24,000 bases of DNA from Thermococcus sp. Lineage in GTDB: Archaea; Methanobacteriota_B; Thermococci; Thermococcales; Thermococcaceae. The notes beneath the pieces are model-generated. The model worked only from the letters and a program-made list of their open reading frames with translations. It ran no database searches and was not told the origin of the DNA. Below are positions 1 to 17,813 of this stretch, piece by piece. Made by a program: the position numbers and the translations under genes. The number at the start of each line of letters is the position of its first letter. Position 1 is the first letter of the stretch. The stretch lies in contig JAMOTW010000033.1 in the NCBI GenBank assembly GCA_027062125.1, positions 28,095 to 52,094 on the forward strand. The letters run 5' to 3'.

Positions 1-2547
1 GAGGACGACGCTGAAAACACTAGAACATTTGAGTACAAGACGCCCTATATTAGACAATACGAGAACTTCGGGAGGCAATTATATGAGAAAGGAATAATCG
101 TTGGGACGCCGTATTACGTATGGTACAGAACCGATTTAAGTAATTGGCACGACTATGGACATAAATACACACCTCTGATGGGAACATATAAGTCAAACGA
201 CCCTATTGTAATTTCAAAACATATTGACTGGGCTACTGGGTATGGAATTAATCTTTTTTTAGTTTCTTGGAGTGGTTATGAGGAGGGTGATTTGAAATTT
301 TTCGATGAGAATCTTCAGTTAATGTTCAATATCAGTATCTCACAAGATATTTACATTGCAATTCTGTATGAATCAGTTGGTAGGTTAATTAGCAGACCCC
401 CGCCGGTTTACATATCTTTAGACGATGAACGTAATGTCGAGATTTTAACTAGCGATTTAAGATATCTTGCCAAGATGTATTTTTCTAAACAAAACTATTT
501 GCGAATAGAAGGTAAACCCATTGTCTATCTTTATGAGTCTAAAGGATATACCGGAAACCTTGAAAATGTAATTAGAAGGGTAAGAGAGACTATCATCAAT
601 GAATGTGGAATGGATATCTTCTTGATTTCTGATCATGCCCATCCTTTAGCAGATACGGATGACCCTGTATGGATTGATAGATTAAAACAATTTGATGGTG
701 TAACTGTCTGGTTGGGTGGGTATTTACCCGATGGAAAATATGTTGGAGGTAGCTATACTAAACAGTTAAAAATCAATTATTCTAAATGGTACAACCTAAC
801 GAGAAAACTTGGAATTCTCTTGATACCGTTTGGAACGCCAGAATTTGACAATCGGCTATCATGGGGATCCCCAAATTCAATACCTATACTTCGCGATAAA
901 AATAGTTCAAAGCAAAATTTACAGACGCTTTTGGAATATTCGAGTGAATTGCCAGATAGGCACAAAATGATCTTTTGGGGTACATTTAATGACTTCTTTG
1001 AAAGTACAACCTTAGAGCCCGCACAACAATACGAATTTTCTTCATTGGATGGACTTAGGGAAGTTCTTGAGGAGTATTTGGAGAATCTTACTTCGCCTAA
1101 ACCTCAAGTTCTGGGTTTTAACTGGACGCCTACCAAGATTGTTTGGGATAAGGTTTATGATTTGAAGGTTAGTTTCAAACTCTCTTACCCGCCTGATGAG
1201 ATTTCCAGCGTGAAGTTGATCTTCAAACCGGAGAATTACTCGTACTTTATAACCGAATACGGGATGAGACGAGAGGATTATTACAAAGTCTTCCCAAATG
1301 ATTCGAGGGTTTACGAGTTAAAGCCGGTTGATGGAACATTCGACGAGAATGAAGAGGAGTTCAAAGTCGAAGTGAAGAACATCACCGGGGGCGCCGAGTA
1401 CTGGATAATCATTCAAGTTCAAACAAAAAACGGGAGGACAGTAGAGTACAAGAGGAAAACACCATACATCAGACAGTACGAAAACTTTGGCAGGCAATTA
1501 TACGAGAAGGGGATAATCGTCGGAGCAAGTTACATGACATGGTTTGTTAAAGATAACTGGGGATGGCCAAATGATTATGACTTCAAGGGGGCTCCATTGA
1601 TTGGCGGTTACGACATAAATGATAAGCTGGTTCTGTTCAAGCAAATGGACTGGAGTACGGGTTTTGGCATAAACGTATGGTTTTTAGATTGGTCCAGAAA
1701 GAGTGATAATTTTCACACAGACTCCAACATCCGAAAAATATTTCAAATTTCCCATGAGTTTAGTGGTTCGCCAAAGCTCGCCATATTGTGGGATCCAACT
1801 TTTGAAAATATGAAAAAGACAAAGTGTGGCATATGGACTTGTTATGATGTAAACGATAACTCCACGAGAGAATATATTATAGTCACCTTTATGTATCTAG
1901 GCCATACATTTATGGGGGATAGCAACTACTTCAGATTAAACGGCGATCCTGTCATTCACATCTACTCTTCAGCTTCTCTTCGCGGGGATATTGAGAGTCT
2001 ATTCCGGGAAATTAAACGCAAAATGACATCTAAATACGGTTTCAAGCCATCTATTATAGGCCACGAGATAGCATGGATATTTCAATACCCTCCAGATTGG
2101 TTCTCAGTTACTGGAAATGACGCTAAGAGACTTCATGCTTTTGATGGATTCAGTGATTGGGCTGGATCATGCGGAGATAGGAGCCATGAAGAGTACATCA
2201 AGAACTATGAAGAGAATGTGAAAAAATTGTATTCTGAATGGAGTAGTTTTCTAGAAAAAGAGGATGTACTTTTTGTCCCTAGCGTCGTTCCAGGATTCGA
2301 TGAAATATGGATCTATGCAACTACTGACTGGCCACCTATCCCAAGATCACCAGAACTGTTTGAAGAAAGACTGAGAATATCCTTGAATAGCATAAGAAAT
2401 CAAAAGTTTAAAATGATTAGAATTGACACTTGGAATGAGTGGGGTGAATGGACTCAAATAGAACCTACCCATGAGGAAGGTTTCGCTTACCTTAAGGTTC
2501 TCAAGCAAGGTCTAAAGGAGTACATGGAAAAACAAGAAAAAGACTGA
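1..2547 (+). CDS. 5'-truncated (window edge) multi-module glycoside-hydrolase-like protein: two GH99 (endo-alpha-mannosidase)/WbsX-like domains separated by a ~110-aa beta-sandwich-like spacer
   Basis: Frame 1 is open from nt 1, with no stop before the track ATG at 178. The upstream residues (..TPYIRQYENFGRQLYEKGIIVGTPYYVWY..) continue the domain, so the true start lies outside the window. PLMGTYKSNDPIVISKHIDWATGYGINLFLVSWSG and PLIGGYDINDKLVLFKQMDWSTGFGINVWFLDWS fit the N-terminal pattern I recall for GH99/WbsX-like proteins. The C-terminal TWNEWGEWTQIEP resembles the GH99 NEWHEGTQIE block. Family assignment is from memory, not from a search. Confidence 0.75.
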   Translation, partial: EDDAENTRTFEYKTPYIRQYENFGRQLYEKGIIVGTPYYVWYRTDLSNWHDYGHKYTPLMGTYKSNDPIVISKHIDWATGYGINLFLVSWSGYEEGDLKFFDENLQLMFNISISQDIYIAILYESVGRLISRPPPVYISLDDERNVEILTSDLRYLAKMYFSKQNYLRIEGKPIVYLYESKGYTGNLENVIRRVRETIINECGMDIFLISDHAHPLADTDDPVWIDRLKQFDGVTVWLGGYLPDGKYVGGSYTKQLKINYSKWYNLTRKLGILLIPFGTPEFDNRLSWGSPNSIPILRDKNSSKQNLQTLLEYSSELPDRHKMIFWGTFNDFFESTTLEPAQQYEFSSLDGLREVLEEYLENLTSPKPQVLGFNWTPTKIVWDKVYDLKVSFKLSYPPDEISSVKLIFKPENYSYFITEYGMRREDYYKVFPNDSRVYELKPVDGTFDENEEEFKVEVKNITGGAEYWIIIQVQTKNGRTVEYKRKTPYIRQYENFGRQLYEKGIIVGASYMTWFVKDNWGWPNDYDFKGAPLIGGYDINDKLVLFKQMDWSTGFGINVWFLDWSRKSDNFHTDSNIRKIFQISHEFSGSPKLAILWDPTFENMKKTKCGIWTCYDVNDNSTREYIIVTFMYLGHTFMGDSNYFRLNGDPVIHIYSSASLRGDIESLFREIKRKMTSKYGFKPSIIGHEIAWIFQYPPDWFSVTGNDAKRLHAFDGFSDWAGSCGDRSHEEYIKNYEENVKKLYSEWSSFLEKEDVLFVPSVVPGFDEIWIYATTDWPPIPRSPELFEERLRISLNSIRNQKFKMIRIDTWNEWGEWTQIEPTHEEGFAYLKVLKQGLKEYMEKQEKD
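40..105 (+). repeat. Copy 1 of the intragenic module-junction repeat (encodes TPYIRQYENFGRQLYEKGIIVG)
   Basis: The same 22 aa are encoded at 1459-1524. A codon-by-codon comparison shows 13 synonymous and 0 non-synonymous differences. Confidence 0.9.
1459..1524 (+). repeat. Copy 2 of the intragenic module-junction repeat (encodes TPYIRQYENFGRQLYEKGIIVG)
   Basis: Direct repeat of 40-105 with a period of about 1.42 kb. The flanking catalytic-type domains are far more diverged. Confidence 0.9.
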
Positions 2548-2554
2548 CGCCCCT

Positions 2555-2842
2555 TTATTCCTGGGTAAGAGTCCTCACGAGTTCATCAAGGGCCTTGTAA
2601 ACGTCGCTTGTGCCATAGAGCTTCTCCATAGTTTTCATGATCCGATAGCGGGCATCGACGTTGTATGGACTGATCTCCTTCTGAACCCCTTCAGAACCCA
2701 CCAGGACTTCGCTCACGAGACCGAGCCACTCACTGTACACGGACATAAGCTCCTCGAGGAGCATTATCTTCGAGGCCAACCCCATCTCCTTAAGCGCCTC
2801 TCCAATGGGCTTATCCCCCGTCCTCTCAAGGACAATTGGCAT
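2555..2842 (-). CDS. Small hypothetical protein (95 aa, predicted helical)
   Basis: The track ORF 2555..3133 overlaps rplP1 in another frame, so I trimmed it to the ATG at 2842 (a GTG at 2851 is also possible). Codon usage matches the GC-rich host genes. A TATA-like CTTAAATA lies about 25-30 nt upstream (plus 2873-2884), which suggests a leaderless mRNA. I recognise no family. Confidence 0.55.
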   Translation of the reverse strand: MPIVLERTGDKPIGEALKEMGLASKIMLLEELMSVYSEWLGLVSEVLVGSEGVQKEISPYNVDARYRIMKTMEKLYGTSDVYKALDELVRTLTQE

Positions 2843-2902
2843 GAAAACCACCAGAGAATCTACGAAACCATCGTATTTAAGGGCCTCGAAGAAGTTCGAA
2901 AT

Positions 2903-2922
2903 GAAAACCGAAGTAAAAGAGA
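2903..2922 (-). terminator. Oligo-T terminator candidate after rplP1
   Basis: The minus strand reads CCTTCTCTTTTACTTCGGTTTTCAT immediately after the rplP1 stop. Archaeal RNAP terminates at T-runs. Confidence 0.45.
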
Positions 2923-2936
2923 AGGGAGGAAGGAGT

Positions 2937-3257
2937 TCAACCGAAGAGGGCGCCGAGTCCAGCGAGGGCCTCCTCCTCGCTGGCCTCCTCTTCCTCTTCC
3001 TCCTCTTCCTCAGCGGCGGCCTCAGCGGCGCCACCCTCAGCGGCCGGAGCGGCGGCAACGGCAACCGGGGCGGCAACCGGCATGGCGGCCTTCTCGATGA
3101 CCTCGTCGATGTTAACGCCCTCAAGGGCGGCAACGAGGGCCTTTATCCTGGCCTCGTCCGGGCTAACACCAGCGGCCTCAAGCACAGCCTTGAGGTTCTC
3201 CTCGGTTATCTCCTTACCAGCGGCGTGGAGCAGCAGAGCGGCATACACGTACTCCAT
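2937..3257 (-). CDS. rpl12: 50S ribosomal stalk protein P1 (L12)
   Basis: [30 protein letters not shown]... followed by an Ala/Glu-rich tail ending [19 protein letters not shown] lies 7 nt upstream of the ATG at 3257. The track start at 3272 was rejected. Confidence 0.95.
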
Positions 3258-3334
3258 TTTTCGCACCTCCAATCATCTTCATTTTTCATTCATTTCACAC
3301 GGATTTGTTCAGGGATACGAGGGAAATGGAAAGT

Positions 3335-4357
3335 TCAGCCGAAGAGCGCGCCCAGTCCTGCGAGCGCGTCCTCCTCGGATGCCTCCTCCTCTTCCTCTTC
3401 TTCCTCAGCCTCCTCAACCTTCTCTTCAGCCGGCTGAGGGGCGACTGCAACTGCCATTTGTGCCTGTTGGTTTAAAAGCTCTTTGGTCTTCTCGTCAAGC
3501 AGGTCCTCAGGCAACTCCTGGGCTATGAGCAGGACTGCGCGAAGGGCCCTGCCAAAGATGTCCTCGACGGTCTCCGGGGTGACGTAGCCAGCCTCGACAG
3601 CGACGTTCTTCGCGCCGAGGAAGGCCTTCTGGATGATGGCCTCGATGGTCTGGCTGGTTGGGTAGGCGGTGTTGACCGACAGGTTGAACGCGTGCATGTA
3701 GGCCTGCTGGAGCATGTTGATGTACTCGTTCTCGTCGATGGCAAGGACGTCCGGGGTGTAAACTATGCCGTCCTCGTAGGCCGCGAGGAGGTTGAGACCG
3801 ACCTCGAGCGGCTCGATGCCGAGGGCGTTGAGTATCCTGGCGAGCTGGTCGGTTATGACCTCGCCGGCCTTGAGGACGGTGTAGTCTTTCTGTATGCTGA
3901 CCTTGCCCTTCTCGATCCTCGCCGGGATTCCAAGGGCCTGCATCTCACCGACGAGCGGACCCGGAGCGAGTGGGGTCGGTCCGGCCGGGATGACGACGTC
4001 GTGCGGGACGACGGCGCCTGGCTTAGCTGGAGCCGGGGTCTTGCTCTCCTCAAGGAGCTTGTAAAGCTTGAACGGGTTCATCTCGGTGGCGAGGATTCCG
4101 GCTCCGCCCTGGATGTGGTCGATGAGCTTCTCGAGCTCCGGGTTGTTGAGCTCCTGAGCGGCCCTCTTTATGGCGAGCTCGATGAGGGTGTTCCTGCTCA
4201 CGCGGAGGAGTGCCTTACCGCGGAGCTTCTCACGCATCTTGCTGAGCGGGTAGGCTGGGACGCCGGCCACATCGACGAGCGCTATCACTGGGTAGCTCTT
4301 GATGATCTTGGTGAGCTCTTCAACTTCCTTCTTCTTCCACTCGGCTACGTGGGCCAT
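3335..4357 (-). CDS. rplP0: 50S ribosomal stalk protein P0 (L10)
   Basis: [15 protein letters not shown]... with the same acidic C-terminal peptide ([13 protein letters not shown]). It follows rpl1 in the conserved L1-L10-L12 order. I chose the ATG at 4357 over the GTG at 4366; the GTG overlaps the rpl1 stop codon. Confidence 0.95.
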
Positions 4358-16606: not shown

Positions 16607-16683
16607 GCCCCGGTGGCTCAGCCTGGCGGAGCGGCCGCTTGGTAAGCGGCAGGTCGCGGGTTCAAACCCCGCCCGGGGCTCCA
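16607..16683 (+). tRNA. tRNA-Thr (anticodon GGU), CCA encoded, no intron
   Basis: Manual cloverleaf. Acceptor GCCCCGG/CCGGGGC. D arm GCTC..GAGC. Anticodon stem GCCGC/GCGGC with loop TTGGTAA. T arm GCGGG-TTCAAAC-CCCGC. Discriminator T followed by CCA. Confidence 0.93.
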
Positions 16684-16688
16684 TTCTA

Positions 16689-16734
16689 CAAACTTCGCCT
16701 TCGCGAAGTTTGATCAAGGTCCGTGATTCCTTTT
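16689..16734 (+). repeat. Hairpin module M1 (+)
   Basis: CAAACTTCGC-cttc-GCGAAGTTTG (10-bp stem, 16689-16712), then ATCAAGGTCC, then GTGATTCCTTTT. It starts 5 nt after the tRNA-Thr CCA. Confidence 0.85.
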
Positions 16735-16829
16735 GAAAAGCGCGTTCTGGAGTGGATTTCTTTGAGAACCACTTCTTGGGCAGAAAGGAGATTTGCCCCA
16801 AAGAGGCGTATTCTGAGGGGGTTCAAGCG

Positions 16830-16858
16830 TTTTTGGCGCTCCTTTGGAGCGCTAAAAA
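16830..16858 (+). repeat. Central T5/GC-hairpin/A5 element of unit U1
   Basis: TTTTTGGCGCTCC-ttt-GGAGCGCTAAAAA forms a 13-bp stem including one G-T(U) pair. It is followed by GCCGAACC. The counterpart in U2 is at 17488-17537. Confidence 0.8.
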
Positions 16859-16949
16859 GCCGAACCCTTCTCAAACGAACTACAGGAAACGAAATCCATG
16901 TTGACCAAGTGAGAGCAATATCTGAAGAAATCCTCCAAACAAGCCACTT

Positions 16950-16995
16950 AAAAGGAATCACGACCTTTGCCCAGCAACTTTGCGCAGGCAAAGTT
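16950..16995 (-). repeat. Hairpin module M2 (-)
   Basis: The minus strand reads AACTTTGC-ctgc-GCAAAGTT, then GCTGGGCAAAGGTC, then GTGATTCCTTTT. Confidence 0.85.
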
Positions 16996-17039
16996 TTCTG
17001 TACTCTCAAACCCCCGTAGTGGGGCTTCGCCCACGTTAA

Positions 17040-17084
17040 GAAACTTTTCTGGGGAAAAGTTTCATCAAAACTGGCAGCCTTTTA
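17040..17084 (+). repeat. Hairpin module M3 (+), degenerate tail
   Basis: GAAACTTTTC-tggg-GAAAAGTTTC (10 bp), then ATCAAAACTGGCAGCCTTTTA. Compare M6: GATCAAAAGCTGGTGATTCTTTTT. Confidence 0.65.
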
Positions 17085-17149
17085 GGGTTGCTAACCTAGT
17101 TAGAGGTTTACTCTCAACTTGCTCGTTTTAGTTGGGGTTTCTTCTCCCT

Positions 17150-17172
17150 AGCGCCCTTCGGGCGCTGTTTTT
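17150..17172 (+). terminator. GC hairpin with TTCG tetraloop followed by T5 (intrinsic-terminator-like), near the symmetry axis
   Basis: AGCGCCC-ttcg-GGGCGCT then GTTTTT. It is oriented for + strand transcription. Confidence 0.4.
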
Positions 17173-17266
17173 AGACAACCCCTCACCAACAAGCTTTCAT
17201 GAAAATAAACCCCTAAACAAGAATGCCCACTTGACGAGGCATGCAACTACCCACATACTCTCTTAA

Positions 17267-17309
17267 CTACTCAAACTCCTTTGGTCAAGCTTTGCGCAAG
17301 CAAAGCTTG
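17267..17309 (-). repeat. Hairpin module M4 (-), tail partly deleted
   Basis: CAAGCTTTGC-gcaa-GCAAAGCTTG (10 bp, 17286-17309). The minus-strand tail ACCAAAGGAGTTTGAGTAG aligns to the M6 tail ATCAAAAG..TTTGAGTGG if the GTGATTC block has been lost. The orientation call is tentative. Confidence 0.45.
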
Positions 17310-17339
17310 CTGGGGGGCTAACGCCCCCACACCCCCCAG

Positions 17340-17395
17340 AACTTTGCCTGCGTAAAGTTTCTGGACAAAGTTTCGTCAAAGTTCGTGATTCCTTA
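17340..17395 (+). repeat. Hairpin module M5 (+)
   Basis: AACTTTGC-ctgc-GTAAAGTT (one G-U pair), then a spacer with a duplicated CAAAGTT, then GTGATTCCTTA. The hairpin is nearly identical to M2 read on the minus strand. Confidence 0.8.
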
Positions 17396-17487
17396 CTTAG
17401 AATTCGCTAGGCAACGGGGGGTTTTAGTTGAAATCTGCAATTTTGGCCGGATTCATTCCAAAAAAGGTAACCCTTGATAGGTTCGGC

Positions 17488-17537
17488 TTTTTTAGCGCTC
17501 CGGAGGAGCGCGGGTTGAAGTTGAACCCGCTAAAAAA
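17488..17537 (+). repeat. Central T6/GC-hairpin/A6 element of unit U2, with an extra inserted hairpin (three-way-junction-like)
   Basis: TTTTTTA + GCGCTCC-gga-GGAGCGC + CGGGTT-gaagttg-AACCCG + (c) TAAAAAA. It is preceded by GGTTCGGC, the reverse complement of the GCCGAACC that follows the U1 element. Confidence 0.8.
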
Positions 17538-17605
17538 CGCCCTTTCGACATGAATCCAACGTACAATCTAACCAATAAAACAAACCCCACCAAAACTGAC
17601 CACTC

Positions 17606-17653
17606 AAAAAGAATCACCAGCTTTTGATCAAACTTTTGCCCTGCAAAAGTTTG
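17606..17653 (-). repeat. Hairpin module M6 (-)
   Basis: The minus strand reads CAAACTTTTGC-agg-GCAAAAGTTTG (11 bp), then ATCAAAAGCTG, then GTGATTCTTTTT. It starts 5 nt after the tRNA-Pro CCA, mirroring M1. Confidence 0.85.
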
Positions 17654-17658
17654 TTTCC

Positions 17659-17736
17659 TGGTGGGGCCGCCGGGATTCGAACCCGGGTCACGGGCTCCCA
17701 AAGCCCGCAGGATGGACCAGGCTACCCTACGGCCCC
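17659..17736 (-). tRNA. tRNA-Pro (anticodon UGG), CCA encoded, no intron
   Basis: Manual cloverleaf on the minus strand. Acceptor GGGGCCG/CGGCCCC. Anticodon stem CGGGC/GCCCG with loop TTTGGGA (G37). T arm CCGGG-TTCGAAT-CCCGG. Discriminator A followed by CCA. Confidence 0.92.
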
Positions 17737-17777: not shown

Positions 17778-17813
17778 CGCTGGAAGCTTTTGGAAAAGCT
17801 TGCTCCGCAGGAT

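Follow-up and report, generated by a model that had tools for sequence, protein, structure and literature searches.

The window, a 24,000-nt stretch of DNA, lies on contig C33 of a Thermococcus-like assembly (1.49 Mb, 74% complete, 56% GC). The region studied runs from tRNA-Thr(GGT) (16607-16683, plus strand; ARAGORN and Rfam) to tRNA-Pro(TGG) (17659-17736, minus strand), with a HARP-family gene (TIGR03875, 15975-16606) 5' of tRNA-Thr and topA beyond tRNA-Pro. The 3' end of the HARP-family gene lies within the TATA region of tRNA-Thr, and the link between this gene and the tRNA is conserved in most of the genus. Behind tRNA-Thr, TTCTA is followed by a proximal end on the plus strand (16689-16734), made up of a hairpin (16689-16712; 10-bp stem, 4-nt loop), ATCAA, and GTGATTC-C-TTTT (GTGATTC at 16723-16729, T-run at 16731-16734). 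Behind tRNA-Pro, GGAAA is followed by its counterpart on the minus strand (17606-17653), with a hairpin at 17653-17629 (11-bp stem, 3-nt loop), ATCAA, and GTGATTC-TTTTT at 17617-17606. The original prediction that both genes carry one shared trailer is confirmed above chance: with a module HMM, matches reach 57 bits in the genome but never exceed 8.9 bits once the genome is reversed. The spacing, described there as identical, is near-identical (10 vs 11 nt between hairpin and GTGATTC), and of the proposed TGATCAA block only ATCAA stands apart, TG being the end of the stem. As a unit, the trailer was drawn too small, since four further copies lie between the two tRNA genes in alternating orientation.

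The trailer is one end of a dyad-symmetric, non-coding mobile element of 240-300 bp located behind stable-RNA genes. Each unit consists of a terminal palindrome, three to five blocks of 30 bp, a central 7-3-7 palindrome, a mirror arm, and a second terminal palindrome. Three units, each with its central palindrome, fill the Thr-Pro gap and are joined by two linker hairpins. Unit 1 (16689-16998; 4+4 blocks), anchored at tRNA-Thr, has its dyad palindrome at 16836-16852 and its inverted end at 16955-16998, with mirrored words near 16723/16955, 16754/16927, 16788/16891, and 16819/16862. The linker hairpin module that follows (16999-17038) recurs between the units of many clusters. Unit 2 (17039-17310; 3+4 blocks, arms of 100 and 133 nt, dyad palindrome at 17150-17166) is separated by a second, G/C-rich linker module (17311-17339) from unit 3 (17340-17653; 4+4 blocks, dyad palindrome at 17495-17511), which is anchored at tRNA-Pro and whose proximal end is the second trailer.

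The 30-bp quantised, 10-bp-phased anatomy of the element is new here. Measured from the inner end anchor to the dyad in 135 units, arms are 102.8±2.3 bp (51 arms), 133.0±2.6 bp (215 arms), or 163 bp (one arm) long, a step of 30.2 bp with only two outliers, although the units behind these and the following statistics are related copies and hence not independent samples. The number of blocks per arm varies freely (3+3, 3+4, 4+4). Left and right arms match only at words of 6-7 nt situated 21.8, 51.5, 82.9, and 113.3 bp from the dyad (i.e., every ~30.5 bp): at least 6 nt are shared at these words in 63-80% of comparisons within units vs 17-36% between units, and the gaps between words show no excess match (1-4%). 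Rare variants of a word are also matched on both arms. Within a single arm, each of the four words is different. A/T and G/C dinucleotides alternate with a period peaking at 10.3 bp; the power at 10.2 bp is 2.26, compared with 0.89 in shuffled sequences and 1.15 in AT-matched genome windows, is 1.47 when the motif words are shuffled, and the helical phase is continuous across the dyad. Arm quantisation and phasing were repeated on held-out units of T. kodakarensis KOD1. An array of Lrp/FFRP sites (~31-bp spacing) was rejected, no position having the 5-3-5 palindromic site in more than 6% of arms; so was an extruded central cruciform, as the helical phase fits best when either no sequence or a multiple of 10 bp is taken out.

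Genome-wide, the module HMM yields dozens of significant matches, and nearly every proximal end is accompanied by an inverted copy ~300 nt (295-315 nt) downstream, which bears out one of the roles suggested earlier for the trailer, the end of a mobile element that exploits the 3' flanks of tRNA genes. The proposed check of all tRNA 3' flanks found the module again behind 17 of the 32 tRNA genes (the main end type behind 15, a variant end behind two more); three of the tRNA genes with no element end are inner genes of tRNA operons. The pattern is present in 72 of 97 genomes of the family (reversed control 0), among them 56 of 61 congeneric genomes and members of other Thermococcaceae genera, but in none of the nine Pyrococcus-like genomes (group g3); outside the family it was found in one of 37 genomes, the reversed control never matching. 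KOD1 carries 69 terminal palindromes in about 21 clusters. The plasmids gave no match, and for the sampled viral contigs each of the 120 stretches listed was a weak or chance match. One contig, L235 (AT-rich, collagen-repeat-encoding, and virus-like), has a perfect 36-nt inverted repeat (111-146, 2932-2967) with a similar hairpin, which was judged convergent and unrelated.

Presence and size of the element vary between species. The Thr-Pro gap of relatives spans 322-976 nt (one to three units) or is free of the element, tRNA-Thr has no element behind it in some relatives, and tRNA-Ser(CGA) is followed by nothing of the kind in most species and by a solo 45-nt end in three. Since one and the same tRNA may be followed by different element subfamilies, and identity between copies from separate loci is as high as 85% here and 91% in KOD1, units move or convert between loci; with within-genome medians of 55-57%, there has been no recent burst. 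Some ends (L006, L023, L051, L072) contain extra multi-hairpin modules inside the terminal palindrome, suggestive of nested smaller repeats.

In all 107 tRNA-anchored ends the palindrome starts 1-7 nt past CCA, and in tRNA operons the element sits behind the last tRNA. It also starts ~5 nt past the C/D RNA sR47, lies behind the H/ACA RNA Pab160 and an unnamed C/D-like RNA, and has left decayed ends behind the SRP RNA of KOD1. Of the distal ends, eight run right up to a stop codon, and further ones border directly on promoter boxes. The anchors share no sequence; all are stable-RNA 3' ends. The anchoring could reflect a process tied to such ends; alternatively, selection may have trimmed back deletions bounded by an end as far as the first essential base. 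A rule of landing 1-7 nt behind any stable RNA implies a mechanism of targeting or trimming.

Several candidate RNAs were noticed beside elements. The unnamed C/D-box-like sRNA is convergent with sR36 and has the element directly behind it (L071:790-868, L288, L303, L306). In four genomes, a conserved two-hairpin RNA-like sequence that is negative in Rfam, with a K-turn-like GATGA motif and an ACA end, lies directly 5' of the element (L092, i.e., C203:6510-6586 of the source genome, L060, L090, and L304). In several species the element starts just behind a short hairpin near the promoter region of the ribosomal-protein L3 operon (L091, i.e., C99:2677-2760 of the source genome, L052, and L321); this hairpin may be an unannotated small RNA.

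The original prediction also listed 3'-processing or protection among the candidate roles of the trailer. A signal acting at the RNA level (processing, protection, or termination), or a long structured RNA, would agree with a hairpin that invariably starts 1-7 nt past CCA and follows the final tRNA in operons, with the good folding of the Thr hairpin (z -3.0), and with the biased orientation of the terminal loops (135:13). The same module, however, leaves nearly half of the tRNA genes of the genome unserved, orthologues of a filled tRNA are empty in other species, and the end also occurs on the other strand and away from tRNA genes, following C/D, H/ACA, and SRP RNAs and stop codons. Its pairing is that of DNA: mismatches at the words are G.T in 47 and A.C in 49 cases, the central stem is Watson-Crick in 412 of 413 pairs with loops in both orientations, and 13 of 148 copies (9%) have the terminal loop in flipped orientation. 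The symmetry is strand-neutral, and the lack of G.U bias marks the object as duplex DNA. No Rfam family matches the element, and a long RNA rod was rejected, the arms showing no excess complementarity between the motif words and no G.U bias. In KOD1, 14 of the 53 unnamed orphan sRNA starts (Jaeger 2014, PMC4247193, Table S6) fall within the 11.9 kb of element clusters, four of them ~25 nt behind a TATA-like terminal palindrome. These starts, for which the elements account, could speak for a structured RNA; they are read here as candidate cryptic promoters. Altogether, an RNA-level role is largely refuted and must be regarded as very improbable.

The family is real and genus-wide, and apparently undescribed: no description was found in the searchable literature, outside which many subscription papers lie, and the passages found in Jaeger 2014 and Phok 2011 are silent on it. 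Its behaviour is that of a REPIN or a MITE, but it lacks defining properties of both, and of a tRNA signal as well. REPINs and BIMEs, which are mobilised by RAYT (Bertels and Rainey 2011, PMC3116915), resemble it in inverted palindromic ends around a spacer, lack of coding, extragenic location, and mosaic stacking. Unlike REPINs, the element has no GTAG/GGAG foot (its foot is ACA/AGA/GCA before AAACTT, and GTAG was seen only as a variant of an inner word), no linked Y1/RAYT, and no random placement; its arms do not pair throughout, the whole unit does not fold into the single-strand hairpin characteristic of REPINs, and at 240-300 bp it possesses a central palindrome and arms quantised by 30 bp. 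Among prokaryotic MITEs are the Sulfolobus SM elements and Correia. MITEs (census in PMC11602168) are likewise short, non-coding, bounded by terminal inverted repeats, and polymorphic between genomes; in contrast to them, the element shows no near-identical burst, no cognate IS was found, a target duplication of fixed length is not apparent, and the interior keeps geometry rather than sequence. Tn7-TnsD and casposons are comparison systems of the tRNA-targeting type. So are the integrative elements with pTN3/TKV integrases (Cossu 2017, PMC5495485), which share the tRNA 3' location and the link to inversions, whereas the present element lacks a duplicated tRNA half, an enzyme gene, and TG..CA ends, and also uses non-tRNA stable RNAs.

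Searches for a mobilising enzyme were negative. PF01797 (Y1/RAYT) was not found in the source genome (74% complete) or in the complete, element-rich genomes G014, G025, and G072, and no module lies within 1.5 kb of 20 Y1 loci. The IS200/IS605 transposase TnpA, TnpB, and extra tyrosine recombinases were rejected as mobilisers, none being linked to the element; the sole PF00589 gene of the source genome encodes a 285-aa protein, probably XerA. No autonomous copy with the same ends was found in ~250 Thermococcaceae loci, the plasmids, or the sampled viral contigs. No consistent target duplication was found. The linker is 1-7 nt long; one solo end, that of Ser(CGA), is flanked by a direct repeat, CAAACT, and is the sole such case. 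At the distal flanks inspected, no duplicated tRNA 3' half (the att scar of an integrase) was seen. At L051 of G014 (2301-4210), gene pairs that are toxin-antitoxin-like as judged from their translations (a PemK/MazF-like protein with an RHH partner and a PIN-domain protein with its partner) lie between the cluster behind tRNA-Ile and a distant inverted end; these genes are possibly cargo bounded by element ends.

A purely selfish, MITE- or REPIN-like DNA is the first alternative to be weighed. Its 30-bp blocks would be binding arrays for a transposase or recombinase of its own, as at the ends of Mu or Tn7, with no special part for histones. The directional words, which are matched left to right and vary by subfamily, speak for such arrays, as do the inverted ends, tandem mosaics, and polymorphic presence, and a 10-bp phase fits any wrapped synaptic complex. 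The lack of a linked enzyme or autonomous copy and of a near-identical burst stands against this explanation, as do the difference between the four words of one arm and the free number of blocks, and it is considered unlikely, though the strongest of the alternatives.

Elements also lie at the breakpoints of rearrangements. The tRNA-Pro cassette occurs in either orientation between tRNA-Thr and topA, being inverted here relative to some relatives, with terminal palindromes at both breakpoints; one of them is the solo palindrome at 17784-17801, between the promoters of tRNA-Pro and topA. The sR47 and tRNA-Arg behave likewise. For larger inversions, two genomes were compared that we take to be those of T. 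onnurineus and T. sp. 4557. Two inversions between these organisms were mapped to unlike tRNA genes, which IntpTN3 would not recombine in vitro (Cossu 2017, PMC5495485). At inversion 1, element ends or decayed units are present at each of the four junctions. Inversion 2 is given in the paper as Leu and Gly (PMC5495485); the one junction pair inspected there (tRNA-Trp of 4557 and tRNA-Gly of T. onnurineus) has decayed units too. The elements may offer the missing homology for inversions between unlike tRNA genes; the support is mild, because about half of the tRNAs carry elements anyway. A single inversion was examined at the level of its sequence; the units there, truncated or decayed, give no support to a crossover precisely at the dyad. 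No element lies at boundary 2 of the KOD1 3C map (1561-1562 kb, PMC11840125).

We favour, with a probability of roughly 55%, the reading that these are mobile, non-coding elements of duplex DNA, a non-autonomous family of the Thermococcaceae, whose arms would be a bent platform for a protein repeating every 30 bp, most likely histones. The genome encodes two histone genes. Chromatin of T. kodakarensis protects 60+30n bp up to ~300 bp, or ~10 dimers (Sanders 2021, PMC8155482), and archaeal histone positioning sequences show 10-bp dinucleotide phasing (Nalabothula 2013, PMC3691661). The 30-bp step, the 10-bp bend phase, and the ~300-bp upper size of the element match the geometry of archaeal histone polymers. 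The arms would be kept as a bent duplex platform, putatively wrapped by about 8-10 histone dimers per unit, and at the palindromes a trans-acting recombinase, or recombination by the host, could copy, swap, or trim units. That units remain behind strongly transcribed RNA genes might be due to their doing no damage to the RNA and supplying a T-run terminator of their own, with a mirror copy for a convergent gene; a T-run lies at +44 to +50 past many filled tRNAs, and this putative terminator may replace that of the tRNA. A histone array could add a roadblock to read-through, and ectopic recombination between units would join unlike tRNA genes and flip cassettes.

Known histone positioning sequences and hypernucleosomes (PMC3691661, PMC8155482, and Clone20 in PMC10151503) resemble the element in the 10-bp A/T-G/C alternation, the 30-bp unit, and the ~300-bp limit. 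They are, however, diffuse genomic preferences or SELEX products, whereas the element, a putative histone site, is a discrete, dispersed, dyad-symmetric repeat in intergenic DNA, for which a low histone content is reported. Histones by themselves do not account for the directional mirrored words; these suggest an additional sequence-reading protein or a contact between the two arms as duplexes. Histones are not known to require directional, left-right-matched words of 6-7 nt. Pyrococcus has histones, and the absence of the element from the Pyrococcus-like genomes therefore counts against the histone model. So does the failure of a high-affinity histone site to nucleate hypernucleosomes in vitro (PMC10151503).

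It is possible, though still tentative, that the element is a mobile, self-contained chromatin module selected to assemble a positioned hypernucleosome of 8-10 histone dimers directly behind stable-RNA genes, where it would serve as a roadblock or insulator and as the common substrate of the tRNA-linked inversions that reshuffle Thermococcus chromosomes. A host-selected chromatin terminator or insulator, in which a positioned protein array behind the most heavily transcribed RNA genes stops read-through or serves as a buffer for supercoils, with ectopic gene conversion as its sole means of spread, appears distinctly improbable. It would explain geometry kept at a divergence to ~55% identity, the restriction of the anchors to stable-RNA 3' ends with no common sequence, and the T-runs; yet about half of the tRNA genes and whole species do without the element, the tandem stacks, the nesting of linker modules, and the scars left by rearrangement are suggestive of selfish DNA, and the KOD1 units yield cryptic transcripts. 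Should histones be the ligand of the favoured bent platform, the family would provide natural, discrete hypernucleosome-positioning elements, and KOD1, which is genetically tractable and has ~21 clusters, could show whether chromatin ends or insulates transcription. A conserved hairpin motif, GCCGAGCCC, lies 3' of tRNA-Ser(CGA) throughout the genus (L103-L132), whether or not a solo element end precedes it.
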